Origin: Gammaproteobacteria bacterium
GTDB taxonomy: Bacteria > Pseudomonadota > Gammaproteobacteria > Eutrophobiales > Eutrophobiaceae
Reading direction: 5' to 3'
Assembly (NCBI GenBank): GCA_040905045.1
Contig: JBBDSH010000073.1
Coordinates: 2,535 to 66,534, forward strand
DNA length: 64,000 nucleotides
Below, one piece after another: positions 2,655 through 55,595 of this stretch. The notes under the pieces were generated by a model that saw only the letters and a list, made by a program, of their open reading frames with translations, searched no databases and had not been told where the DNA came from. The position numbers and the translations under genes were made by a program. Position 1 is the stretch's first letter, and each line of letters opens with the position of its first letter.

Positions 2655-3064
2655 TGCCGGACGCTTCCCGCCGGGATCTGGATCGCTGCATTGAGGCTGT
2701 CGAGGCCGGTTATGAATTCCTGCTGGCTTACGCGGCCCAGGGACATGAGAGTGATCGTCATGCCGGTGCCGGCGGTGAAGTCCGCCGCTATCTCGCTGAT
2801 ATGGATGAAGCCCTGAACGGACTGGGTGAACTGGCCCTGGCCTGTGCCGAACAGGTGGACGGCGAGAGCGTGACAGAGTATCGCGGGTTTCTCGACGCCC
2901 TGGATGCGGACGCCCGCAAGGCCCGGGCGGCCGTTCGCCTGGTCCTGAGCCGGGACGATATCAGCTCACAGTTGGTCGACAACCTTAACGCCTCCAGCCA
3001 TCTGCGCGCCCTGTTGACCGACTTGTTCCTGATTGATGAAGCACTGAAAGCGAGTGAGGAGTGA
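2654..3064 (+). CDS. Conserved helical hypothetical protein at the end of the molybdoenzyme operon
   Basis: Start overlaps the cyt b stop (TGATG); all-helical sequence with EAGYEFLLAYAAQG and SSQLVDNLNASSHLRALLTDLFL blocks. Confidence 0.75.
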   Translation: MPDASRRDLDRCIEAVEAGYEFLLAYAAQGHESDRHAGAGGEVRRYLADMDEALNGLGELALACAEQVDGESVTEYRGFLDALDADARKARAAVRLVLSRDDISSQLVDNLNASSHLRALLTDLFLIDEALKASEE

Positions 3065-3126
3065 GGCGTGAGGAGTGAGGCGTCGAGTTCATTTATACTC
3101 CTCACCCCTTACTCCTTACTCCTCAC
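3052..3126. repeat. Paired inverted heptamer arrays (GAGGAGT-type / ACTCCTC-type)
   Basis: gtgagga/gtgaggc units followed by tactcct/cacccct units; the two arrays can fold back on each other. Confidence 0.85.
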
Positions 3127-13260: not shown

Positions 13261-13532
13261 GTTAAGGCTCTTTGGGAGAATTTGTGGATATCTGGAAAGG
13301 TAATGGTGGATCTCGCCAAGAGCGCAAAGCACGCGAAGGAATGATGGATTTTTACCTCTTTGCGACCTTGGCGCGCTCTGCGAGATCCTTTTGAAAAACC
13401 AGCCCTGAAAACTGGACATGATTTCTCACTCTGCAGCCTCAAAAATATGACTGCTTGTCATGGAGTTGGCGGTCCCCGGAACAAGTCCGGGGCAGGCATG
13501 GCGAGCAGGATATCACCCGCAGATTCTACTGA
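13261..13532 (+). repeat. Interspersed repeat family B, copy 1 (contains the 23-bp hairpin insert at 13474-13496)
   Basis: Aligns with 23762-24019 and with the reverse complement of 32114-32237; core ggatctcgccaag...gcgagatcc foldback. Confidence 0.85.
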
Positions 13533-13605
13533 CGGGCCGAAGTTAAAAGTAGGGTGGCCGATCTCGGACCGAATCAGATTATGGGACTATGCAAGTGGAG
13601 AGCCT

Positions 13606-13794
13606 GTGAATAGCAACCATTCTACACTGCCGGAAGGTGAGAATCTGCGGCGGGCGGTGCGCTGGCTCTCGGAACACGCCCCGGTAACATCGGCGACAAT
13701 TAACGATGCCGGCCTGCGATTTGATTTAACCCCCTCGGAAGAGGAATTCCTGCTGCGGGAATTCCGGCGGGAAGTATTGAATCAGGATGATTGA
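13606..13794 (+). CDS. Small hypothetical protein (62 aa)
   Basis: GGAG RBS plus GTG start; LPEGENLRRAVRWLSE...AGLRFDLTPSEEEFL looks like a conserved small helical protein. Confidence 0.65.
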   Translation: MNSNHSTLPEGENLRRAVRWLSEHAPVTSATINDAGLRFDLTPSEEEFLLREFRREVLNQDD

Positions 13795-13877
13795 AACTGT
13801 TCAATAAACTCTGAAATACTACACTTTGTATATGAAGTATCGGATACATTATTGATAGCGGGCCGGGAGGTGACGAT

Positions 13878-14099
13878 ATGACGAATCAGCAGGACGTGCA
13901 GACATTAATCGAAAAACGGGATGAGTTGCTGGATCGACTGGAACGTATCCGCGCCGATCTGGAAAGCGGCCTGGAAACGGACATGGAGGATCAGGCGATC
14001 CAGCTGGAGAATCGTGACACGCTCATGGAAATCGCCCGCGTTACCGAGGAGGAACTGGAGCGGGTGCTTAAGGATCTGGAAGCGGCCGGCGGCGGGTGA
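13878..14099 (+). CDS. TraR/DksA-like coiled-coil protein lacking the C4 zinc finger
   Basis: GGAGGT RBS; helix-DMEDQA-helix (DxxDxA tip motif); no Cys; ends where the Zn finger would begin. Confidence 0.6.
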   Translation: MTNQQDVQTLIEKRDELLDRLERIRADLESGLETDMEDQAIQLENRDTLMEIARVTEEELERVLKDLEAAGGG

Positions 14100-14109
14100 G
14101 TCAGGGATC

Positions 14110-14207
14110 AGGTACAAGGTGCAAGGTACAAGGCGCAAGGGGCAAGGAGCAAGGAGCAAGGAGTAGAATACCGAAATTCACCTCACTCCTTTCTCCTCAC
14201 GCCTCAC
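14110..14207. repeat. Heptamer arrays (GCAAGGN about 7 units; inverted CTCCTCA-type units)
   Basis: acaaggt gcaaggt acaaggc gcaaggg gcaagga gcaagga gcaagga, then cctcactcctttctcctcacgcctcac; lies between convergent genes. Confidence 0.85.
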
Positions 14208-14644
14208 TCAACGCCGGCTTGTTGCAGCCATTGCTGCAGTTGCGGCAGGGGCAGGGCACCGCTGGTGCGCTGTACTTCGCGGCCGCAGCGAAACAATATC
14301 AATGTCGGTATGCTGCGTATCTGCCAGCGTCCGCCTATATCCGGTTCGTCATCGGTGTTCAATTTGGCGAAACGCAACCGCGGTTCCCATGCGGCGGCGG
14401 CCTTTTCGAACTGCGGGGCGAAGCTGCGGCAGGGACCGCACCACGGCGCCCAACAATCCACCAGAACCGGCAGGTCGTTCTTTTGCAGTACCTGTTCCAC
14501 GTTGCTGCGGGTCAGTTCCAGCGGCTTGCCGGTAAAGACCGCTTCCTTGCATTTGCCGCAACGCGGTGAACGGTCCAGTTTTTCCCGGGGAATACGATTG
14601 ACCGTGCCGCAATGGCCACAGGTGGCGTGAATTGGTTCGGACAT
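14204..14644 (-). CDS. trxC: Thioredoxin 2 with N-terminal zinc finger
   Basis: CGHC...NR...CGKC followed by WAPWCGPC and IRSIPT. Confidence 0.93.
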   Translation of the reverse strand: MSEPIHATCGHCGTVNRIPREKLDRSPRCGKCKEAVFTGKPLELTRSNVEQVLQKNDLPVLVDCWAPWCGPCRSFAPQFEKAAAAWEPRLRFAKLNTDDEPDIGGRWQIRSIPTLILFRCGREVQRTSGALPLPQLQQWLQQAGVE

Positions 14645-14702
14645 GACCTGTATATGGGGCGGAAATTACCGATTACAAGCCGGTCAGCATCCCGCCGGTT
14701 GA

Positions 14703-15845
14703 TCAGTAACCTTTCTCGGTATCGACCACGTTCAGCAGCTTCTCACCGTTGATGTAGCGGCGCAGGTTCTCCCGGATGATGAGCCAGCCACGTTCGAAAC
14801 CGCGATCAGTAATACTGGCCACATGCGGTGTGATAATCACATTGGACAGGCTCCACAGTTCGTGGTCCGGCGGTAAGGGTTCCGGGTCCGTGACGTCAAG
14901 GCCGGCGCCGGCCAGCCGGCCGTCCTTGAGCGCCGCCATCAGAGCTTCCGTAACGGTGCTGCCGCCGCGGCCGATGGAGATGAAAAAGGCGCGGGGCCTG
15001 ACGTTATTGAAGAATTCCTCGTCGAAGAGATCGGTGGTCTCATCGGTCAGGGGCAGGGCGTTGACCACCACATCCGCCTGTTTCGCCAGTTTCAGGAGTT
15101 CATGGGACAGGCCGACGTATTCGACGAAGTCCGGTCCTTCGCGGCTGGAATGACGCGTCGCAAGCACCCGCATGCCCAGGGCGTTGGCCCGTTTGGCGAC
15201 TTCCGTGCCGATGCCGCCGAGACCCGCTACCAGCATGGTTTTGCCGCTCACCTCGATCATGGGGAAATCAATGCTGTTGCGACTTTGCCATTTACCTTCG
15301 GCCTGGTTGCCGTGAAACCGGGGCAGCGCACGCGCCAGGGCCATCATCATGGCAATAACGTGTTCGGCAATGGGTGGCGAGGCCGAGTGCTGATTATTGG
15401 TAAAAATAAAATCTTTCTCTTCAATCCCGGGATACATGCAATGGTTAATACCGCTGCCGTAATGCTGCAGCCAGCGGAGTTTGTTCGAATTCTTCAACAA
15501 TTCGACGGAACAAAAACCCAGTAACACTTCCGCGCTCTCGATGATTTCCCTGTCCATTGGCTGGCCGAATTGCTGGGTGAACGGCACCAGTTCCACATCG
15601 CCGGCCACCTGCCGGGCCTCGGTCAGGAGTTTCTCCTGTTGCTCCGGATCCGGCGTCGGCAGGGCGATGTAGACCTTGTCCGGCTTCCTCCAAAGCGGGG
15701 AATTGCGGACCGGTTCATCCGCTTCCTCGAGTCTCAGTTTCTCGATCAGGGCCTGTGTTTTTTCATCGGGGCCTTGCGCGTGTAACGACGACAGTCCTGT
15801 CAGGCCGAATAACAGCGGAATGAAGAGGAATTTTCGGTAATTCAT
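14703..15845 (-). CDS. D-2-hydroxyacid dehydrogenase family protein with predicted signal peptide
   Basis: IAEH, GLGGIG, ALPLT, IGRG, AGLDVTDPEPLP and ITPHVA; N-terminus MNYRKFLFIPLLFGLTGLSSLHA-Q. Confidence 0.9.
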   Translation of the reverse strand: MNYRKFLFIPLLFGLTGLSSLHAQGPDEKTQALIEKLRLEEADEPVRNSPLWRKPDKVYIALPTPDPEQQEKLLTEARQVAGDVELVPFTQQFGQPMDREIIESAEVLLGFCSVELLKNSNKLRWLQHYGSGINHCMYPGIEEKDFIFTNNQHSASPPIAEHVIAMMMALARALPRFHGNQAEGKWQSRNSIDFPMIEVSGKTMLVAGLGGIGTEVAKRANALGMRVLATRHSSREGPDFVEYVGLSHELLKLAKQADVVVNALPLTDETTDLFDEEFFNNVRPRAFFISIGRGGSTVTEALMAALKDGRLAGAGLDVTDPEPLPPDHELWSLSNVIITPHVASITDRGFERGWLIIRENLRRYINGEKLLNVVDTEKGY

Positions 15846-15889
15846 CGCGTCTTTCCGGATCAGGTTTCAGTTAGTGCAAAAATAAAGGC

Positions 15890-16366
15890 TCATCGCTCAC
15901 GGAACAAACTGTGACAGGCGCTGCAGGTCTCGTCCAGTCGGCGATAGGCGTCTCGCAGCTCCATGAAATTGCTGTTTCTTGCCTGTATTTCAATGTTGGC
16001 CGCTTCGACATAGAGCCTGTCCGCCATGGTATGAAAAACCGCCTGTTCGTTTCTGTCCATTTCATCACCGGCTCCTGATTTGCCCAGGGCTTCGGCTGAA
16101 ACAACCACTTCGCCCGCCAGATCAATCAGGCTTTGTAAATACTCGGTCCGCCATTCGTCGGATTCGCGCACGGGGGCCTCGCGGTTGCGCATCAGTATGT
16201 TCAGGCGCTGCATGGTATCGAGCAGTTCCTCGCTGTGAACGGCGTGCATGGCTGCATCACCCTTCGGATATTCAGCGGCGTCGGGTACCCCGTCCTCCGG
16301 TATACGCTGACAGGCGCCGGTCAGAAACAGGATCAATAACGCAGTCAGTGTTCGAGAGTATGACAT
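15890..16366 (-). CDS. Lipoprotein monoheme four-helix cytochrome c, paralog 2
   Basis: Lipobox-like LTGA-C; C-terminal CSACH. Confidence 0.85.
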   Translation of the reverse strand: MSYSRTLTALLILFLTGACQRIPEDGVPDAAEYPKGDAAMHAVHSEELLDTMQRLNILMRNREAPVRESDEWRTEYLQSLIDLAGEVVVSAEALGKSGAGDEMDRNEQAVFHTMADRLYVEAANIEIQARNSNFMELRDAYRRLDETCSACHSLFRER

Positions 16367-16460
16367 TGGCAGTAGTGCTGGAATGATCGGGATGTGTATC
16401 CGGAATATTATGACATGCTGTCTTGTTTCATAACATCACGGGATGGTCATTACTCAGGAT

Positions 16461-17894
16461 TCAGAATTTATAGGATGAGGTGAACTGGAACCGGTTCAGT
16501 TCACCGTCCCGGCCGTCTTCCAGCTTGCGATGGCCGTAGAGCCATTCGATGCCGATGGAAGTATTCAGGGTCGGGCTCCAGAGCAGGTTGATGTGAGCGG
16601 AATAGAATGACTTGTTTATTTCTGCCGGGGCAATCAGTAAATCATGATCGGCGCGGGCATAGCCGACGGTAAGGGAGGAGCGCAGTGTTTCATCCCACCA
16701 GTGCTGGTAGGAAAGGAAGCCGCCCAGTACATCGGTAAGGGTGATATTGCCGCGGCCATCCAGAACGCCGTCGTCAAAACTGTTGAAGGAAAGGTAGCGA
16801 CCCAGGGCATTGCCGTATGCCAGGGAGAAACGCAGATTGTCCCGGTCACCGATGTAAATACGTCCCGATGCGCTTACGGCACCGCCCCATTGGCTGTCCG
16901 CGGCGACGAAAGCCTCCGCACTATCGTGGCGGATCTGCCGAATGAGGCCGGCCAGGGACCAGTTGCCCCAATCACCGCTGAAATCCAGCCGGGTGACGAT
17001 GTCCGGAACACGATCATCGTCCACGGCCAGGCTTCCGCCTGCGGTGGTCAGTGTGGTTTCCGGCTGTTCCAGGCCCAGTGTCAGATCTCCCCAATGAAAA
17101 GGGTGTTGATAACGCAACAGGGGCTGGCGGATATTGAGTATACCCGCAGGACCGTTGCTGTCATTGGTTTCGGGATAGGCGGAGAGATTCAGAAAGCCGG
17201 TATAGGTTTGCCCGAGGGTGAGGCCTTTATAAACCGCATAGGCGTGGCGCAGGCGGGGATTATAGGAATTGCTGACCCTTTCATTACCTCCGCCGCCGAC
17301 AAAGTCGATTTCTATATATCCGGCCAGATCGCCGATGGCGGTGGGGGAATGAGCCTTGACCCAGAGGCGCGAATCACGGGCGCTGTAGGCGGTTTGATGG
17401 TCTTCACCGCTGCCTTCCACCGGTATGGCCGCGGGATTGAACGCCTGATCGGCCCGGTTGCTTCCGCCGCCGCCGCTGCGGCTGTTGTAAATGGCGTCAA
17501 AGTAGATCCGGCCACCGGCGGAAATATCCGGGCCGGGCGGTGGCTCCGTATTGACGACCTCGATACGCTCGTTATTCGTTGCCGGCTTCTCTGTTGCCGC
17601 CATCCGGTCGTCTGTTCCGGTTTCACCGGGCACGGTCCCGGCCTCTGCCGCTGCTTCCTTTTTTTCCAGTAAAAACTGCAGACGGGCCTCCAGTTCTTCC
17701 AGGCGCCGGCGCAGGTCGCCGACTTCACGCTGTATCGCCGATATTTCCCCGTCCTCCTCTGCCGGCAACGGGCTTGCGGTCACAATCAGCGCAAAAAGAA
17801 CCGTATACGCGGGGATACCCCTTCGCTGAATCCGTGGCGGCCGGTTGCCGGATCGGGCCGGCAGTGATAAGGGAATGGCCGGAAATAGGATCAT
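16461..17894 (-). CDS. DcaP-like outer membrane porin with N-terminal coiled coil
   Basis: Coiled coil after the leader; ARDSRLWVK, YIEIDF, PRLRHAY, LGQTYT, NLLWSP; C-terminal YKF. Confidence 0.85.
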   Translation of the reverse strand: MILFPAIPLSLPARSGNRPPRIQRRGIPAYTVLFALIVTASPLPAEEDGEISAIQREVGDLRRRLEELEARLQFLLEKKEAAAEAGTVPGETGTDDRMAATEKPATNNERIEVVNTEPPPGPDISAGGRIYFDAIYNSRSGGGGSNRADQAFNPAAIPVEGSGEDHQTAYSARDSRLWVKAHSPTAIGDLAGYIEIDFVGGGGNERVSNSYNPRLRHAYAVYKGLTLGQTYTGFLNLSAYPETNDSNGPAGILNIRQPLLRYQHPFHWGDLTLGLEQPETTLTTAGGSLAVDDDRVPDIVTRLDFSGDWGNWSLAGLIRQIRHDSAEAFVAADSQWGGAVSASGRIYIGDRDNLRFSLAYGNALGRYLSFNSFDDGVLDGRGNITLTDVLGGFLSYQHWWDETLRSSLTVGYARADHDLLIAPAEINKSFYSAHINLLWSPTLNTSIGIEWLYGHRKLEDGRDGELNRFQFTSSYKF

Positions 17895-18346
17895 TGCCGC
17901 CGAAACAGTTTATGGCAGGCATTACAGGTATGCTGCAAGCGCCGATAGCCCGCCTTGAGTGCGCTGTGATCGGCGTCATCGAGATGTTTCTCCAGGTTTA
18001 CCGTCTCCTGATACAATTGCCGGGACAGGGCCCTGAAGGTGATGCTTTCCTCGGATTCCGGTTCCATCCCTTCGGTGATATCCGGCAGTCGCTCCGCGCT
18101 CCGGTCCAGTTCCAGGGCCGCGTCCACTAGCGCCCGGATCTGTTCGGCCCGCATGCGATCCAGTTCCAGTTCGGGGTATTCGCGTTCATAGGACAGGCGG
18201 TTGAGGCGGGCCATGATGGTACGCAATTCGCTGCTGTGTACGGCATTCAGGACGGCATGACTGTCGGACGCAGGTGCCCGGGTTACGGATTCATCGGCAC
18301 GAGCGAGGGAGAAGACGATCAGCAACAGGCATGGCAATATTTTCAT
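17891..18346 (-). CDS. Exported monoheme four-helix cytochrome c, paralog 3
   Basis: Signal peptide ending ARA; C-terminal CNACH; ATGA-type overlap with the porin gene. Confidence 0.85.
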   Translation of the reverse strand: MKILPCLLLIVFSLARADESVTRAPASDSHAVLNAVHSSELRTIMARLNRLSYEREYPELELDRMRAEQIRALVDAALELDRSAERLPDITEGMEPESEESITFRALSRQLYQETVNLEKHLDDADHSALKAGYRRLQHTCNACHKLFRRQ

Positions 18347-18438
18347 GCAGACTGATATTCATTTATCTTGAATATGAAGTCAATAATCGGCGCCGTAATT
18401 GCCGTTTGTATTCTTGTCCATCAGAGAAAATTCCGGAT

Positions 18439-19002
18439 ATGTCCACAAATGTAAACAGGAAAACCGTGCCCGGTGAGGTGATCACCCCTATCGGTATCGA
18501 ACAGCGCAGGCAGGTCGATGCCCGTACGCAGGAATATCTGGAATATGCCGGACGGGAACTGGGCAGGGACTTCGCGACTATTACGGTCTCCTTTGACCTT
18601 TCGGGGCGCTCTGCGGGCATGTATTGCGTCCACGGGGACAATCGCGTCATCCGCTACAATCCCTGGTTGTTTGCACGTTATTTTGAAGACAGTCTCCGCA
18701 CCACCGTTCCGCACGAGGCGGCCCATTATATTGCCGATATCCTATACGGTATTCATTCAATTCGCCCGCACGGTCCTGAATGGCGAAGTATCATGCAGCT
18801 TTTCAGTGCCGAACCACGCGCCTGCGGAAACTATGATCTGGAGGGTATACCGGTCAGGAGACAACGGCGTTTTGACTATGCCTGTTCCTGCCGCAGCCAT
18901 GAATTAACCACGGTACGGCATCGTCGTGTTCAGCATCAGCGCATGAAATACATCTGTCGTTATTGCAAGGGTGCATTGGTTTATATCGGAGAGCTGACCT
19001 GA
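18439..19002 (+). CDS. SprT-like zinc metalloprotease
   Basis: AG...IRYNP, VPHEAAH (HExxH), PHGPEW, YACSC and YICRYC. Confidence 0.9.
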   Translation: MSTNVNRKTVPGEVITPIGIEQRRQVDARTQEYLEYAGRELGRDFATITVSFDLSGRSAGMYCVHGDNRVIRYNPWLFARYFEDSLRTTVPHEAAHYIADILYGIHSIRPHGPEWRSIMQLFSAEPRACGNYDLEGIPVRRQRRFDYACSCRSHELTTVRHRRVQHQRMKYICRYCKGALVYIGELT

Positions 19003-19248
19003 GACAGGGCCGGTCATTGCTTGAATGAAACAGCAATATCTGTACAATACTCAAACAGTTAGATGTGCCCGGAGTTGTTGATTCCCCCGGTCGGTTTGTC
19101 CCGTTGATCCCCCGGTTTCATTACCGTTGTCTTATCCTCAAATGCCGGAGTACGGTGCCTGTCATAGCGGTGGTCGATGATGTAAACATCGCTTCAGCAG
19201 TGAAACAGTATCCCGATGATTTATTTTTCAATTTCAAGGAGCCCTTAG

Positions 19249-19830
19249 ATGTCTTTTACATTGCCTGAATTGCCGTATGCGCAGAATGCGCTGGAACCCC
19301 GTATTTCCGGGGAAACCCTGCAGTATCATTACGGCAAGCATCATGCCGCCTATGTGACCAAATTGAACGCGGCAATCGACGGTTCCGGATTCGACGGCAA
19401 ATCGCTGGAGGAGATCATACTCAACGCCGAACCCGGCGGCCTGTTCAACAATGCCGCGCAGGTCTGGAACCATACCTTTTACTGGCACAGCATGTCGCCG
19501 GAGAAGACCGAACCACACGGCAAGGTGGCCGATGCCATCAAGGCCGCCTTCGGTGACTTCGACAAATTCAGGGACGCCTTTACCCAGGCGGCGGCCGGCC
19601 ATTTCGGCTCCGGCTGGGCCTGGCTGGTAAAGAACAAGGAAGGATCCGTGGAAGTCGTTTCAACCCACGATGCCGACAATCCCCTGCGCGCCGGCAGCAC
19701 GCCGTTGCTGACCTGCGATGTCTGGGAACATGCGTTCTACATCGATTACCGTAATGACAAGGCGTCTTATGTGGAAAATTTCCGGGAACTGATGAACTGG
19801 GATTTTGCCGAGCATAATTTTAATAGTTAG
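19249..19830 (+). CDS. sodB: Superoxide dismutase, Fe-type
   Basis: LPELPY, HYGKHH, NNAAQVWNHTFYW, FGSGWAWL and CDVWEHAFY. Confidence 0.95.
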   Translation: MSFTLPELPYAQNALEPRISGETLQYHYGKHHAAYVTKLNAAIDGSGFDGKSLEEIILNAEPGGLFNNAAQVWNHTFYWHSMSPEKTEPHGKVADAIKAAFGDFDKFRDAFTQAAAGHFGSGWAWLVKNKEGSVEVVSTHDADNPLRAGSTPLLTCDVWEHAFYIDYRNDKASYVENFRELMNWDFAEHNFNS

Positions 19831-19930
19831 TGGCTCGTGGCTCGTGGCTCGTGGCTCGGTATTTGAGATCGATCACTAATCAGTACTCACCGTACGAGTC
19901 CCGATCCTCGATCCCCGAATCCCGATTCCC
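19829..19930. repeat. Heptamer arrays (GTGGCTC x4; CCCGAT/CCCGAA-type)
   Basis: Between convergent sodB and PHP genes; the second array overlaps the PHP 3' end. Confidence 0.8.
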
Positions 19931-20735
19931 AAACCGGCCGGCATGCCGACGGCAGGGTCTCGAATCCGCCGGGCTCGGCGAAACCGGGCGCACTGCGGTG
20001 ATAATCCGAACCGCAGGAGGCCAGTAAACCCTGTTTCCGGCACAGATTGGCCAGGGTTGAGGTCATGTCCCGCGTCTGCCGGCCCGAGACCACTTCCATG
20101 GCGTCGCCGCCGGCGGCCTTGAAACCGGCAATCAGTGATGTCAGTTTGCTCCGGGTCAGTTTGTACGCCGCCGGGTGAGCCAGGACGGCCAGACCGCCGG
20201 CAGAGTGCGTCCATTCAATAACCTGTTCCATCGGCGCCCACTCGGTGCGGCAATACGCCGCCTTGCCCGCGGACAGGTACTTGTCAAAGGCCTGGCTTTC
20301 ATTACGGACAAAGCCGCAATCGACCATGTGGCGTGCGAAATGGGGACGGCCGATGTGGCGGTTTTGCGCCAGGCGCTCGGCGCCGGCCAGGGGCGTATCG
20401 ACACCCAGTTTCTCGAGTTTCGCCGCGATACGATCGGCCCTGTCCATGCGCGAGTGCTGTTGTTGCCGGATGCCGTCCCGGAGGTCGGCATTCTCCGGCC
20501 GCACGTTCAGGCCGACGATATGGATTTCCAGTTTTTGCCAGCGCGTCGACCATTCAATGCCGGGGATCAACCGCAGGCCGGTGTCCCTATCGACAAGATC
20601 CTCATAGGCGGCCATGGTGTCGTGATCGGTAATGGAGAGCACCCGGACCCCGCATTCACGCGCCTTTTGCACCAGTTGCATCGGCTCAAGCATGCCATCG
20701 GATGCGGTGGTGTGAGTGTGCAGATCAATATGCAT
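19887..20735 (-). CDS. PHP domain protein (YciV/TrpH-like phosphoesterase)
   Basis: IDLHTHTTASDG, ITDHDT, GIE, HIVG, GRPHFA, LAHP and GSDYH; real start at MHIDLH, not at 21392. Confidence 0.92.
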   Translation of the reverse strand: MHIDLHTHTTASDGMLEPMQLVQKARECGVRVLSITDHDTMAAYEDLVDRDTGLRLIPGIEWSTRWQKLEIHIVGLNVRPENADLRDGIRQQQHSRMDRADRIAAKLEKLGVDTPLAGAERLAQNRHIGRPHFARHMVDCGFVRNESQAFDKYLSAGKAAYCRTEWAPMEQVIEWTHSAGGLAVLAHPAAYKLTRSKLTSLIAGFKAAGGDAMEVVSGRQTRDMTSTLANLCRKQGLLASCGSDYHRSAPGFAEPGGFETLPSACRPVWESGFGDRGSGLVR

Positions 20736-20787
20736 GGTCAGGCGTGATTCATGGCTTGTAGCTCGTAATTCCCATATCGTACCATTT

Positions 20788-20843
20788 ACGAGCCACGAGC
20801 CACGAGCCACGAGCCACGAGCCACGAGCCACGAGCCACGAGCT
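20788..20843. repeat. Perfect heptamer array (GAGCCAC x7)
   Basis: Directly follows the uup stop codon on the minus strand. Confidence 0.95.
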
Positions 20844-22722
20844 ACTCCAATTCCTCCCAGCGTTCATAGGCCTGTTCCAGATCCCGGCGTATGCGTTCCA
20901 GTTCCGACAACGTTTCGGTAATGGCGGCCTTGTCCTGTTTATAGAATTCACTGTCGCTGATCTGTTTTTCCAGTGCAGTCTGTTCTTGCTCCAGTTCCTC
21001 GATGCGGTCGGGGAGATCAACCAGTTCCCTTTGCTCGTGATAACTGAGTTTGGTTTTGCCGCGTGACGCCGGATTTTTTTCCGTACCGGGACCGGGATTG
21101 TCTTGTCGGGCTTTCTTGTGCGTATCAACCGGCCGTTGCCGCAGCCAGTCTTCATAGCCGCCGACGTATTCCCGGACGCAGCCGCCGCCCTCAAAGGCGA
21201 TGGTGCTGGTAACGACGTTATCCAGGAAGGTACGGTCATGGCTGACCAGCAGCAGGGTGCCGTCAAAATCCATGAGCAAGTCCTCGAGCAGTTCCATTGT
21301 CTCCACGTCCAGGTCGTTGGTGGGTTCGTCCAGCACCAGCATGTTTGCCGGTTGCGTAAAGATACGGGCCAGCAGCAACCGATTACGTTCACCGCCGGAG
21401 AGGCTTTTGACGGGCGAATCGATGCGTTCCGGCGGAAAAAGGAAATCCTTCATGTAGCCGATGACATGACGTGAGCGGCCGCGGACAGTAACGTAATCAC
21501 TGCCTTCGGATATATTCTCCCGGACTGTTTTACCGGGCTGCAGCCGGGCGCGTTGCTGGTCGAAATAGGCGATTTGCAGTCGCGTGCCGTGAATGACCTC
21601 GCCGCTGTCCGGTTTGATTTCACCCAGCAGCAGTTTCAGCAGCGTGCTCTTGCCGGAGCCGTTGGGCCCGATGATGCCGACGCGGTCGCCGCGCATGAGA
21701 CGCGTGGAAAAGTCCCGGACTATGCAGTGATCGCCGTAGCTGAAGCTGACATGGCGCAGGTCCGCGACCAGTTTTCCGGATGCCATATCGTCGTTTACAC
21801 TCAGATTTACAGCGCCACTGCGCTCCATGCGTTGCTGTTTTTCACGGCGCATCTGTTCCAGTTTCCGTACGCGGCCCTCGTTGCGCGTCCGGCGCGCCTT
21901 GATGCCCTTGCGTATCCAGGCTTCTTCCTCGGCGAGTTTTCTGTCGAAACGGGCATTGGCTTTTTCCTCGGCGGCCAGCAGTTCGTCTTTTTTCTCCAGG
22001 AACTTTTCATAATTTCCCGGGAAGGACGTCAGGATGCCGCGATCCAGTTCGATAATCCGGGTCGACAGGTTGCGAACCAGCGTGCGGTCATGACTGATGA
22101 ACATCAGGGCGCCGGTGAAGGCAAGCAGGAACTCTTCCAGCCAGTGAATGGAGGCAATGTCCATATGGTTGGTGGGTTCGTCCAGGAGCAGCAAATCGGG
22201 ATCGCTGACCAGGGCCCGGGCCAGCATGACGCGCCTGCGGATTCCGCCGGAACAGGTTGCGAGAGGCTGGTCCGGAGGCAGGGACAGACGGCTGAGAACG
22301 GCTTCCACCTTGTGATCGATATTCCAGCCGTTTTCCACGTCGATTTGCTGCTGCAGCTCATTCAGGCGTTTGAGATCAGTGCTGTCATTTTCTTCCGGCA
22401 GGCTATTAACGGCCTGGTGGTATTCGGCCAGAAGCCGGCCGGGCGTACCCAGCCCGGAAGCCACCACCTGGTATACGGTTTCCTCCGTTTCCGGCGGAAT
22501 ATCCTGGAGCAGATAGGAAATACGCAAGGTATCCCGGTGCCAGACTTCGCCGGTGTCCGCCGCCGCCATACCGCTGATCACGCGGAACAGGGTGGATTTG
22601 CCCGTGCCGTTGCGGCCGACCAGGCAGACGCGCTCGCCCCGATCTATACTGAAATTGACATTCTGAAGCAGGGGTTGGTGGCCGTAGGCCAGGGAGATAT
22701 CGGTCAGGGTCAGCAGGGACAT
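20842..22722 (-). CDS. uup: ABC-F family ATPase Uup
   Basis: Two ABC domains (GRNGTGKST, GPNGSGKST, LDEPTN), linker GIKARRTRNEGRVR, and a C-terminal coiled coil ending RWEELE. Confidence 0.93.
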   Translation of the reverse strand: MSLLTLTDISLAYGHQPLLQNVNFSIDRGERVCLVGRNGTGKSTLFRVISGMAAADTGEVWHRDTLRISYLLQDIPPETEETVYQVVASGLGTPGRLLAEYHQAVNSLPEENDSTDLKRLNELQQQIDVENGWNIDHKVEAVLSRLSLPPDQPLATCSGGIRRRVMLARALVSDPDLLLLDEPTNHMDIASIHWLEEFLLAFTGALMFISHDRTLVRNLSTRIIELDRGILTSFPGNYEKFLEKKDELLAAEEKANARFDRKLAEEEAWIRKGIKARRTRNEGRVRKLEQMRREKQQRMERSGAVNLSVNDDMASGKLVADLRHVSFSYGDHCIVRDFSTRLMRGDRVGIIGPNGSGKSTLLKLLLGEIKPDSGEVIHGTRLQIAYFDQQRARLQPGKTVRENISEGSDYVTVRGRSRHVIGYMKDFLFPPERIDSPVKSLSGGERNRLLLARIFTQPANMLVLDEPTNDLDVETMELLEDLLMDFDGTLLLVSHDRTFLDNVVTSTIAFEGGGCVREYVGGYEDWLRQRPVDTHKKARQDNPGPGTEKNPASRGKTKLSYHEQRELVDLPDRIEELEQEQTALEKQISDSEFYKQDKAAITETLSELERIRRDLEQAYERWEELE

Positions 22723-22857
22723 AACAACTGTCTAAAACAAACTCATTTTCATGGGGGGATGATTGTACCGCGAAAAGCCGGGCCGACCGAAACGGGGTTG
22801 AAATCGACGTCACGGACCGCTGAGTACGGCTGGTTTCGCAATTATTAATGAGACCGG

Positions 22858-23060
22858 AAGTATCCCGACACTCCTCTGTGGGACACGCTGTGAATACGTC
22901 CCCTGGATCAAGCCTGTCCCGGCCAACGAGCCGGGGTCCAGGGCAGGCTCTGTACGCTCGACGGCCGCATCTCCCGGATCAAGCCTGCCCCGGTCAACGA
23001 GCCGGGGTCCGGGACAGGCTATGCGGGCCGACAGTCCCACAGAGGAGTGTCGGGATACTT
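22858..23060. repeat. Palindromic element, family A, copy 2, with two nested hairpin-in-hairpin inserts
   Basis: Perfect 27-bp arms at 22858-22884 and 23034-23060; two ~48-bp internal copies of ccYggatcaagcctgYcccggYcaacgagccggggtccRggRcaggct. Confidence 0.92.
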
Positions 23061-23182
23061 ATAACCCTCTTAATAAATCCCGTTTCTGGGAAGAAGATCA
23101 CGGTTTTTCCGGCGAATAGGCTATAGTTTGCATATTGAACGAGGAATACTCGATACGCGTTGCAGCTCTTAGAGGGGGAATT

Positions 23183-23722
23183 ATGGAGTTCACCATTGAT
23201 CGGAAGCCGCCGACAAGCGAAGAAATACTCGCGGAACAGCAGCGGCTCAACAACGCCGCCAGGCGGATAAAAACACGGGATACGCTGATTACGTTCGTTT
23301 TGATCCTGCTTACCAGCGGCGTGGTAGCCATGGTCGTTTACTGGTCCACGGCCAGCTTCAAGTACGCAGCCATAGCGTTCAGTATTTTCCCCGTCATAGG
23401 TGTGATAATGGGGTTGGCGGGCCTGATAACCGTCATCGGTTTCCGCAGCAACGCCATGCAGGTGATTGAACTGAAAAATAATCTGATCGCCCTGCTGCCT
23501 GTCGATTCCGGCAATGAGGACAGCATCCGGGAGCTGTGCCGGAAATACCCGCAGGTGGAGAATTACCGCCGTCAGGTGGAGGATATGGGACGTGCCCTGG
23601 TCAACGGTGAACTGGCCATGTTCTGGGAATGGGACGCCAGTACCGGAGCGAAGTCGGCCAAGCAACGGGCCTATTTCAATAATTCCGGCGGGGATGCCTC
23701 CGCCGATGCCAGTACCGCCTGA
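23183..23722 (+). CDS. Hypothetical membrane protein
   Basis: GAGGGGG RBS; two TM helices and a C-terminal soluble domain. Confidence 0.7.
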   Translation: MEFTIDRKPPTSEEILAEQQRLNNAARRIKTRDTLITFVLILLTSGVVAMVVYWSTASFKYAAIAFSIFPVIGVIMGLAGLITVIGFRSNAMQVIELKNNLIALLPVDSGNEDSIRELCRKYPQVENYRRQVEDMGRALVNGELAMFWEWDASTGAKSAKQRAYFNNSGGDASADASTA

Positions 23723-23761
23723 GAGCGGCTATACGATCTGTCTCATCTTTTTTTGGTTTTC

Positions 23762-24019
23762 AGCAAAATGTGTGGGTATCCGGAAAGGTAATAGTGGATC
23801 TCGCCAAGCCTGCCCCGGACTTGTTCCGGGGATCGCCAAGCCCGCAAAGTAAATATTGATGTTTACCTCTTTGCGAACTTTGCGCGCTTGGCGAGATCCT
23901 TTTGAAAAATCTGCCCGGAAGACCGGGGTCGATTTCGCGTGAGACGGACGCAAAAAAATCCTGTCTATCATAAAGTTGGCGCCCATGGCGAGCAGGATAA
24001 CGCCCACAGATTCTTCTGA
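23762..24019 (+). repeat. Interspersed repeat family B, copy 2 (contains the 23-bp hairpin insert at 23809-23831)
   Basis: Colinear with 13261-13532 apart from the position of the hairpin insert. Confidence 0.85.
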
Positions 24020-24172
24020 TGATTACTGGTAACACACATTCAGCGGCGAGCCGTGAAATCGCTCCGAATCGGTATTTCAAGGTTTGCTCCTTACCCCCTC
24101 CCTTATAAATCATTGATAATCCTTTGAGTTTCTTTACTATTATCGGCAGGTTATTGATACCGATGCCGATCC

Positions 24173-32113: not shown

Positions 32114-32237
32114 ATCTCGCCAAGCGCGCAAAGTTCGCAAAGGATAAAAGTCTATGATTCCTTTGCGTGCTTGGCGATCTTGGCGAGATCCGCCACTACT
32201 CTGCCAGATACCTACAAATTTTGCCAAAGAGCCTTAA
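32114..32237 (-). repeat. Interspersed repeat family B, copy 3 (partial, empty of the hairpin insert)
   Basis: Reverse complement ttaaggctctttggcaaaatttgtaggtatctgg...ggatctcgccaagatcgccaagcacgcaaagg matches 13262 onward. Confidence 0.85.
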
Positions 32238-42088: not shown

Positions 42089-42179
42089 GGAGAGGTGGCC
42101 GAGCGGTCGAAGGCGCACGCCTGGAAAGTGTGTATGGGTCAAAAGCCCATCGAGGGTTCGAATCCCTCCCTCTCCGCCA
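42089..42179 (+). tRNA. tRNA-Ser (anticodon GGA)
   Basis: Acceptor GGAGAGG/CCTCTCC-G-CCA; anticodon arm cacgc-ctGGAaa-gtgtg; long variable arm atggg-tcaaaag-cccat; GTTCGAATC T-loop. Confidence 0.97.
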
Positions 42180-55189: not shown

Positions 55190-55595
55190 TGTTGCGGCTC
55201 CAAGTTCACTCCCGAGACATAACGCGGACACGCTGTAAATACTTTCCCCGGATCAAGTCCTGACTCTTCTACACATTTAATGAAGTCCGGGAAGGAGGTA
55301 ACGATTTATCCGGTTGAACTGAAATGAACTTTGGATACCGGCTCCCGGCTCTTCGGCCGGGACCGGACTCGCACGCGACGCTTGACCGGCATGACGGCAA
55401 CCCGAGGCCGTCATGCCGGAGGCGCGCCGTCCAGCGCCATCCGGTATCCATTCATTTGTGTAGAAGAGACAGCGATCAAGCCTGCCCCGGCAGGTTGTTA
55501 GCCGGGGTTCGGGGCAGGCTCTGTAGCTCGAATGCGGCGTCCATGCCGCATACGGTCCGCTCATATGTCTCGGGAGTGAACTTGGAGCCGCAACA
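55190..55595. repeat. Palindromic element, family A, copy 3, with multiple nested inserts
   Basis: Perfect 32-bp arms at 55190-55221 and 55564-55595; family A core split by hairpin units, a ctcttctacac/gtgtagaagag-bounded segment and a REP-like doublet at 55332-55450. Confidence 0.92.

Follow-up and report, generated by a model that had tools for sequence, protein, structure and literature searches.

Tiny palindromic repeats are usually seen as lineage-bound companions of a resident transposase. In insertion sequences of the IS200/IS605 type, guide sequences at the 5′ foot of a hairpin pair with the target. The small dispersed repeats (SDRs) of Nostocaceae are said to be 21–27 nt long, to share a fold with compensatory changes, to nest within themselves and to be embedded in short tandem repeats. 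SDRs have been reported only from Nostocaceae (PMC5861425). The systems formed by repetitive extragenic palindromes (REPs), REPINs and REP-associated tyrosine transposases (RAYTs) are described as mostly vertically inherited. CGTC-tagged REPs form a superfamily of tagged palindromes for which no dedicated transposase is apparent, with stems of 8–9 bp starting with A/T pairs, loops of 4–5 nt and a CCA-like tail (Di Nocera et al., 2013, PMC3733652). The GC clusters of yeast mitochondria are short, GC-rich mobile hairpins with an AG target, an unknown mobilizing enzyme and substitutions mostly in the loops; one of them, GC42, is bordered by AG at either end, a putative duplication (PMC4478555). 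Here we follow up a hairpin of 23–27 nt which a first-pass annotation had noticed in a 64,000-nt stretch of a gammaproteobacterial genome (assembly GCA_040905045.1; the whole stretch is called the window below). The hairpin is very probably mobile in its own right, and it is best explained overall, with a probability of roughly 0.55, as a non-autonomous single-hairpin DNA element that is moved as a single strand by an enzyme acting in trans.

The hairpin shares with REP/REPIN-RAYT systems a variable loop and a short GC-rich stem flanked on just one side by an unpaired tag of 4 nt, a mostly intergenic position near gene 3′ ends, tens to hundreds of copies and the lack of a target duplication. 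It differs from them in its tag (CCTG, not GTAG), in that no RAYT is flanked by it, in its presence in genomes without a Y1 match, and in its habit of inserting into loops, including its own; in place of a lineage-specific, vertically inherited sequence we find an identical 23-mer in many phyla. With CGTC-tagged REPs it shares only the lack of a transposase, whereas stem, loop and tail do not fit; neither CCTG nor CAGG occurs in the text of PMC3733652, the supplements of which may list further tag types. The likeness to SDRs is one of description, not of sequence: by what is reported of them they come closest in size, in self-nesting and in tandem-repeat embedding (the CACAGAG arrays found here are comparable), and the hairpin, too, falls within 21–27 nt, keeps its fold through compensatory changes and nests within itself, but SDRs belong to one family and the hairpin occurs across phyla. 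Like IS200/IS605 elements, as they are generally understood, the hairpin leaves no target duplication, has hairpin-dependent ends and carries at its 5′ foot a sequence able to pair with the target (CCTG with CAGG); unlike them it has one stem-loop in place of separate left and right ends, a cut inside CAN^G, no TnpA in two copy-rich chromosomes and no clear strand bias. The GC clusters, again likened by description and not by sequence, differ in that the AG of the hairpin lies only on the 5′ side and is largely borne by the element, and in that their host is an organelle (PMC4478555). The sequence of the hairpin has no match in literature text, its 11-mers turn up only in 12 papers that, by their titles, concern unrelated subjects, and a concept search found no description of an equivalent cross-phylum bacterial hairpin, supplements being outside these searches. 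We regard the hairpin as a new, horizontally spread variant within the tiny mobile hairpins of REP-like or SDR-like type; the chance that its mobilizing mechanism is new as well is substantial. It breaks the usual pattern of lineage-bound companions, and the expected enzyme is absent; the mobilizer, if found, would stand for a new mode of DNA movement and provide a very small, structure-guided insertion tag.

The inserted unit, its junctions and its target

The source assembly comprises 2,887,385 bases in 105 contigs (56.7% G+C), and the window lies within contig C73. All five hairpins that had been annotated in the window were found where they had been placed (13474–13496 on the minus strand; 22913, 22984, 23809–23831 and 55481 on the plus strand). 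Within the window, the pattern CCCCGG-N5-11-CCGGGG matches four times against 0.15 expected, with none of 100 shuffles reaching four; the fifth copy, the arm of which reads TCCCGG, is missed by this pattern. The scope of the observation is much wider than the window: CCTGYCCCGG-N5-11-CCGGGG has 116 matches in the genome (55 plus, 61 minus) and its reversed control none. Among 126 stem-loops of the form CCCCGG-N5-11-CCGGGG, CCTG stands on exactly one side in 108, on both in two and on neither in 16, i.e., 110 of the 126 carry this tag in place of the GTAG or CGTC of REP systems. The unpaired 5′ tag precedes a stem with the consensus CCCCGGA/TCCGGGG. A search with free arms recovered the compensatory stems CCCCGGA/TCCGGGG (43), TCCCGGA/TCCGGGA (17–20), CCCTGGA/TCCAGGG (7–8) and TCCTGGA/TCCAGGA (2) with few half-changed intermediates; pairing has therefore been kept up, and strict matching undercounts the family. 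Excising 114 strict copies exposes 10 further strict copies that had been interrupted. The loops fall into subfamilies of 5, 6–8 and 9–11 nt; the commonest are ACTTGAT (23 copies), ACTTGTT (11), ACTGGAT (10) and ACCCCGAT (8), and longer types include 8-nt CCAACGAG and CCGAAGAG and 10–11-nt CATGCTGTAAG.

The flank analyses use the 111 copies with full flanks, and for 88 of these a paralogous site spanning the junction exists in the source genome. Exact insertions of 23 or 24 nt are seen in the left arm of a repeat called family B (eight identical empty sites), at a second family B site (one) and in the hairpin's own loop (10–13 identical empty sites). In four other host families of this genome, CCGGCCAG-G^GATTGG, CCACAGAG-G^ACACAGAG, TACAN-G^GA and GCGGCCGG-G^TGG (the caret marks the junction), every filled site has one A more than any empty site. 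Other lineages give the same kind of comparison. For a host repeat of Alphaproteobacteria with the empty form GATCCCGAAAAGTGGAAACCGGTTTTCGG, 218 empty sites were counted in four genomes; among the 150 listed, two begin GAAAAAGTGG, with five A like the filled sites, and nearly all the rest begin GAAAAG, with four A, mostly as GAAAAGTGG, whereas the filled sites read gaaaaAG^H^tgg (H, hairpin). On a Dehalococcoidia chromosome (G041), 149 empty sites were counted; among the 100 listed none reads CTCAGAGGAGAGGG, with the extra AG, and most read CTCAGGGAGAGGG or CTCTCCCTCAGGGAGAGGG, the filled sites being ctcagAG^H^gagaggg. The alphaproteobacterial decomposition is unique: AGCCTGCCCCGGACTTGATCCGGG, 24 nt, is preceded by an A and followed by a G, and the G of the target completes the hairpin stem.

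Together these sites show the moving unit, (A)G-CCTG...CCGGG, which in its commonest form has 24 nt. Most independent events include the leading A; a few lack it, and the unit then has 23 nt. Judged from the junction sequences, the unit is inserted precisely, immediately 5′ of a G that closes the stem, and without target duplication. The first-pass view of a very small, non-autonomous, precisely inserting hairpin is supported, and so is its statement that no target duplication is made: the tcgccaag direct repeat that flanks the 23809 copy is pre-existing and not a duplication, because eight empty paralogues already read TCTCGCCAAG^ATCGCCAAGC. Nor was the duplication that, with terminal inverted repeats, marks a miniature inverted-repeat transposable element (MITE) of a DDE transposon seen in any host family with empty sites. 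Crossover by a serine recombinase and a 1-nt duplication were considered as junction models and rejected, as neither fits the alphaproteobacterial junctions A^AG...GGG^GTGG.

In its own genome the hairpin is preceded by G at position −1 in 110 of 111 copies and by A at position −2 in 91 of 111, with nothing else conserved in the flanks. AG also precedes it at 118 of 137 loci from a collection of species genomes and viral contigs, and at 161 of 185 once the loci of G041 and of a Binatia chromosome (G042) are added. Because empty sites lack that A or AG, the conserved AG flank is largely part of the element. The first-pass annotation had read the flank otherwise. In the window, four copies do follow CAAG and one CATG, as it said, and the genome-wide search it called for does return a biased flank; CA(A/T)G, however, is not conserved among the 111 copies, and insertion 3′ of a fixed tetranucleotide is not supported as stated, since the A or AG arrives with the element in the source genome, in Alphaproteobacteria and in Dehalococcoidia, and the reconstructed cut is CAN^G, mostly CAG^G. 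Reconstruction gives CAN^G as the target at most sites of the source genome and NAG^G in 84 of the 161 AG sites of other genomes, with CAG the commonest (45/161), counts into which related sites enter many times; CAGG is the complement of the CCTG tag. The observation was confirmed, and its interpretation is partly supported.

Spread across phyla and landing sites

A search of the species-genome collection for the exact 23-mer, with two degenerate loop positions, returned at least 117 stretches from many phyla. The records include Alpha- and Gammaproteobacteria (among them isolates of Luteimonas, Lysobacter and Dyella), Burkholderiales, Binatia, Dehalococcoidia and other Chloroflexota, Chitinophagaceae, Terracidiphilus, Syntrophaceae, Desulfobacterales and Rhodothermales, and 19 viral-contig stretches carry the hairpin as well. 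Whole-genome counts with the general pattern gave 71 copies in the 3.76-Mb Dehalococcoidia chromosome and 68 in the 4.19-Mb chromosome of the Binatia metagenome-assembled genome, both of which are complete, 21 in Dyella flava, five in Luteimonas and three in Nitrobacter, with controls of 0–1 across five genomes; most copies are identical to the consensus. Among relatives of the source genome, 6 of 40 carry 3–9 copies. The lineage-specific host repeats around the copies, the complete chromosomes and the isolates speak against a binning artefact. This one 23-mer has multiplied independently in genomes of Pseudomonadota, Chloroflexota and Binatia, and its distribution shows a hairpin that has spread between phyla and is also present on phage or prophage contigs. 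In practice it can create spurious similarity between unrelated genomes. It also fragments assemblies made from short reads: several copies are no more than about 250 bases away from where a contig stops, and in the likely source run contigs terminate at the 13474 copy.

The hairpin often lands between inverted repeats, i.e., inside another palindrome. At 35 of 114 cross-phylum sites (5.6% in a flank-swapped null) and 30 of 111 sites in the source genome (7.1% in the null), the flanks can form a perfect stem of 7 bp or more within 20 nt. When the joined flanks of the latter were folded by minimum free energy, the junction fell in a terminal loop in 33% against 17% of the flank-swapped control. 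The hairpin is hosted by lineage-specific palindromes, by short tandem arrays (CACAGAGGAN) and by its own loop, and copies nested in loops of their own family bear out the proposal that the element can target itself.

The mobilizing enzyme and competing explanations

In the explanation that we prefer, the unit would be excised or copied as a folded single strand and would enter DNA while it is briefly single-stranded, for instance in extruded loops. A nicking-joining enzyme acting in trans would cut 5′ of a G at both ends of the element and at the target, and the CCTG tag may help to choose CAG^G targets by pairing, in the manner of IS200/IS605 guides. HUH-like chemistry on a single strand is the best precedent, by analogy, and is a serious possibility that we put somewhat below even odds. 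A bolder version, which we offer tentatively, holds that the 24-nt hairpin is a pan-bacterial horizontal transposon, and would be among the smallest mobile DNAs; that its mover is an enzyme class new to transposition or a common host function; that the CCTG tag picks CAG^G in single-stranded loops; and that the hairpin is perhaps one of many cross-phylum micro-hairpins.

Several results weigh against a single-stranded element with an enzyme of its own. At 117 loci, the DNA up to about 4 kb from the hairpin holds neither a RAYT nor a protein family that recurs (the largest family occurs in nine), in keeping with the earlier remark that no transposase stands beside it. The 71-copy chromosome of G041 has no match to PF01797 (Y1_Tnp) or NF047646 (RAYT), and the 68-copy chromosome of G042 has one stop-interrupted Y1/RAYT hit, below the cut-off at 63 bits and flanked by GTAG palindromes. 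Orientation relative to GC skew is 53 versus 58 in the source genome, i.e., without leading- or lagging-strand bias, and 41 versus 65 across phyla (p = 0.025), which is weak and comes from sites that are not independent; skew samples of G041 and G042 (20 windows of 20 kb each) are too noisy to place an origin or terminus, and strand runs on G041 say nothing about the hairpin itself because they are common to its host repeat. Minimum-free-energy folding of joined flanks across phyla puts the junction in a terminal loop in 10% against 15% of the control. The heterogeneity of the 5′ junction, with or without A, is not predicted by simple cleavage at a fixed site, and one nested class reads CTTACG^H^GCATG against empty sites CTTAC(A or T)GCATG, i.e., a substitution. 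In addition, the target statistics suffer from the repeated counting of related sites, and many copies lie in repeated host elements, so that some share of the copy number comes from composite amplification.

The mover that the first-pass annotation had in mind was a resident Y1 HUH transposase, either a RAYT or an IS200/IS605 TnpA, recognizing the hairpin and a 5′ tetranucleotide and mobilizing a REP-type element in trans. The tag and stem-loop are built as in GTAG and CGTC REPs (PMC3733652), target duplications are lacking, and the copies are intergenic (105 of 111, in a genome that a crude gene call makes 83% coding) and favor gene 3′ ends (convergent spacers hold 23 and 21 sites, divergent ones 13 and 9). 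The source genome moreover has two intact RAYT genes, at C105:33369-33905 (+) and C7:247-768 (−), for which the NCBI RAYT model gives scores of 192 and 206 bits, and one RAYT-linked GTAG REP type shares CTGCCCCGGAT with the hairpin. Yet each of the two is flanked by GTAG palindrome arrays of its own (GTAGCCCGGAT... and GTAGGGTGGGTTA...), and among the RAYTs inspected in this and five other genomes (G000, G039, G042, G043, G044 and G045) none is flanked by the hairpin; in every case the flanks hold GTAG palindromes that belong to the RAYT itself. G041 and a 99% complete genome with four copies (G024) gave no Y1_Tnp or RAYT match, and RAYT-like matches among 41 relatives are not associated with the hairpin (5 of 7 with it, 20 of 34 without). 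With the tag being CCTG, not GTAG or CGTC, and with cross-phylum identity in contrast to the mostly vertical inheritance described for REPIN-RAYT systems, a resident RAYT or TnpA is unlikely to be the enzyme. Copying through RNA, in which the hairpin would be transcribed, reverse-transcribed and inserted, could account for a 5′ junction that varies by one A. Heterogeneity of one nucleotide has the look of a junction made by a polymerase, and cyanobacterial SDRs are reportedly a precedent for this route. Yeast mitochondrial GC clusters, for which it has been proposed, are another (Wu and Hao, 2015, PMC4478555), and there is a slight excess of the sense orientation behind genes (33 vs 24 and 29 vs 17). 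Both orientations relative to genes are nevertheless common, tag-strand T.G intermediates (about four) barely exceed C.A (about two), and the RVT_1 model, which matches one gene in the source genome and one in a hairpin-free relative, has no match where the hairpin counts are 71, 68 and 21; we consider this route quite improbable. The sole reverse-transcriptase match of the source genome lies at C50:24924-25517 (−), with 61.6 bits.

There might also be no dedicated enzyme: after entry by gene transfer, the hairpin could multiply when replication or repair stalls at a palindrome and switches template, or through self-primed snap-back synthesis. The lack of an enzyme in two complete chromosomes, the enrichment of sites between inverted repeats, a possible G-run microhomology at the 3′ junction and the rare perfect long palindromes tagged on both sides (2/126) would all fit, but the unit inserted into unrelated contexts in three phyla is exactly the same 24 nt, and its 5′ end is defined; the alphaproteobacterial 5′ junctions lack homology, and the conservation of stem and tag, with loops that vary freely, points to a protein that recognizes them, all of which makes this account improbable. 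It is more doubtful still that the hairpin is a passenger of larger repeats, spread by their amplification or by gene conversion, with the empty sites arising by deletion; we give this very little credence. Loop subfamilies do correlate with host context, the largest context cluster holds 33 copies, and a related strain differs by a whole family B copy, not by the hairpin alone. Against this, grouping the 111 copies by distal flank gives 48 contexts, 37 of which are unique DNA, the hosts across phyla are dozens of unrelated lineage-specific sequences, and the hairpin nests in its own loop. Uniform empty sites, too, far outnumber filled ones: 149 host empties stand in the chromosome with 71 hairpins, and 218 in four alphaproteobacterial genomes, of which hairpins were counted only in G043 (31 empties vs three copies). 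The results on Y1 and RAYT genes, RVT_1, neighboring genes and orientation mean that neither the Y1 nor the RNA route is supported by resident genes. For the single-stranded element moved in trans, which we continue to prefer, the enzyme may belong to another family or may arrive on phages or plasmids. It is also conceivable that the copies are relics, though most are identical to the consensus.

Host repeats and the copies in the window

Family B, of which the first-pass annotation had counted three copies, is a palindrome-rich repeat of ~270 nt with 28 high-scoring segment pairs (HSPs) of at least 150 nt and 61 HSPs in all, on 32 contigs. Its copy 2 in the window (23735–24039, homologous core about 23750–24022) hosts the 23-nt hairpin at 23809–23831 (+), in the left arm between ctcgccaa^g and atcgccaag. 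Copy 1 (approximately 13279–13532) hosts the hairpin at 13474–13496, which reads CCTGCCCCGGACTTGTTCCGGGG on the minus strand, is inserted at cgccat^g and is the 23-nt form without the extra A, the exact reverse complement of the 23809–23831 copy; its site has one identical empty paralogue in the genome, GCTCGCCATG^ACCGCCAACT, and several near-identical ones. The empty sites that had been annotated for these two insertions stand in two cases out of three. A partial, family B-like copy 3 (32114–32224) has an exact empty site at 32178^32179, which on the minus strand reads ctcgccaag^atcgccaag, and 23983^23984 is likewise empty; the left arm of copy 1 at 13320^13321, which lacks the atcgccaag 9-mer as well as the hairpin, is for that reason not an exact empty allele.

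A contig from an independent metagenome run has 37 other bases in place of window positions 23735–24039, with about 94% identity to both unique flanks, and so shows turnover of the family B host repeat, not of the hairpin alone. Four sequencing runs were compared, all as contigs, so that rare alleles would be invisible in this comparison; run-contig joints around 22901–22950 probably come from paralogues. A genome of the same genus (G001) has 66–83% identity over matched stretches (72–80% in long ones) and is not cleanly orthologous, and its spacers at matching places lack the repeats. In one of these (G001:C118, about 2830–3080), the spacer matching the nested repeat cluster of this genome holds a small GIY-YIG-like gene.

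The remaining three window copies, at 22913, 22984 and 55481, each follow ATCAAG in the loop of an inverted outer hairpin of their own family. The 24-nt copy at 22913–22936 (+), CCTGTCCCGG-CCAACGAG-CCGGGG, interrupts an outer hairpin at 22901–22947 (−) with the compensated stem CCCTGGA/TCCAGGG and a CAGG tag; uninterrupted outer loops occur among paralogues in the genome 5–13 times per variant. The 24-nt copy at 22984–23007 (+), with the loop TCAACGAG, interrupts a second outer hairpin at 22972–23018 (−) with the compensated stem TCCCGGA/TCCGGGA, and 10 identical empty loops read CCGGATCAAG^TCCGGGACAG. Both nested pairs are carried by a MITE-like host palindrome of ~200 nt at 22860–23058, with inverted ends of ~25 nt (gtatcccgacactcctctgtgggac ... 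gtcccacagaggagtgtcgggatac); there are thus three levels of nesting, and the same context recurs in the genome. The 27-nt copy at 55481–55507 (+), with the loop CAGGTTGTTAG, lies in a degenerate outer hairpin (about 55470–55518, minus strand). At gathering thresholds Rfam has no family for the hairpin or its hosts in the window and 18 further loci, only tRNAs; the sole match in the window is a tRNA gene at 42089–42176 (+).

Other host repeats are of interest in themselves. Tandem arrays of CACAGAGGAN, with units of 9–10 nt, lie in otherwise unique AT-rich spacers, e.g., at C8:11284, C30:38100 and C80:9145 and, on the contig of the window, at C73:86042; about 20 arrays carry the hairpin and others are empty. 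The alphaproteobacterial host palindrome GATCCCGAAAAGTGGAAACCGGTTTTCGG, with a variable central triplet, is present 17–136 times per genome in G043, G046, G047 and G048. A second cross-phylum micro-repeat, CCCTCTCCC-N4-GGGAGAGGG followed by TTAG-GGTGAGGG, has 149 matches in G041 (e.g., C1 580138–580156), where its strand is constant over long blocks of the chromosome; it is also seen in G042 and at many cross-phylum loci, and it often harbors the hairpin in Chloroflexota, Binatia and Gammaproteobacteria. In the source genome, most hairpin copies are single or nested, and several form inverted pairs 37–261 nt apart; genes between hairpin pairs are ordinary housekeeping genes. At C10:12131-12182, two head-to-tail 24-nt hairpins followed by CAGG stand in the loop of a third, the only tandem array of the hairpin that was seen.

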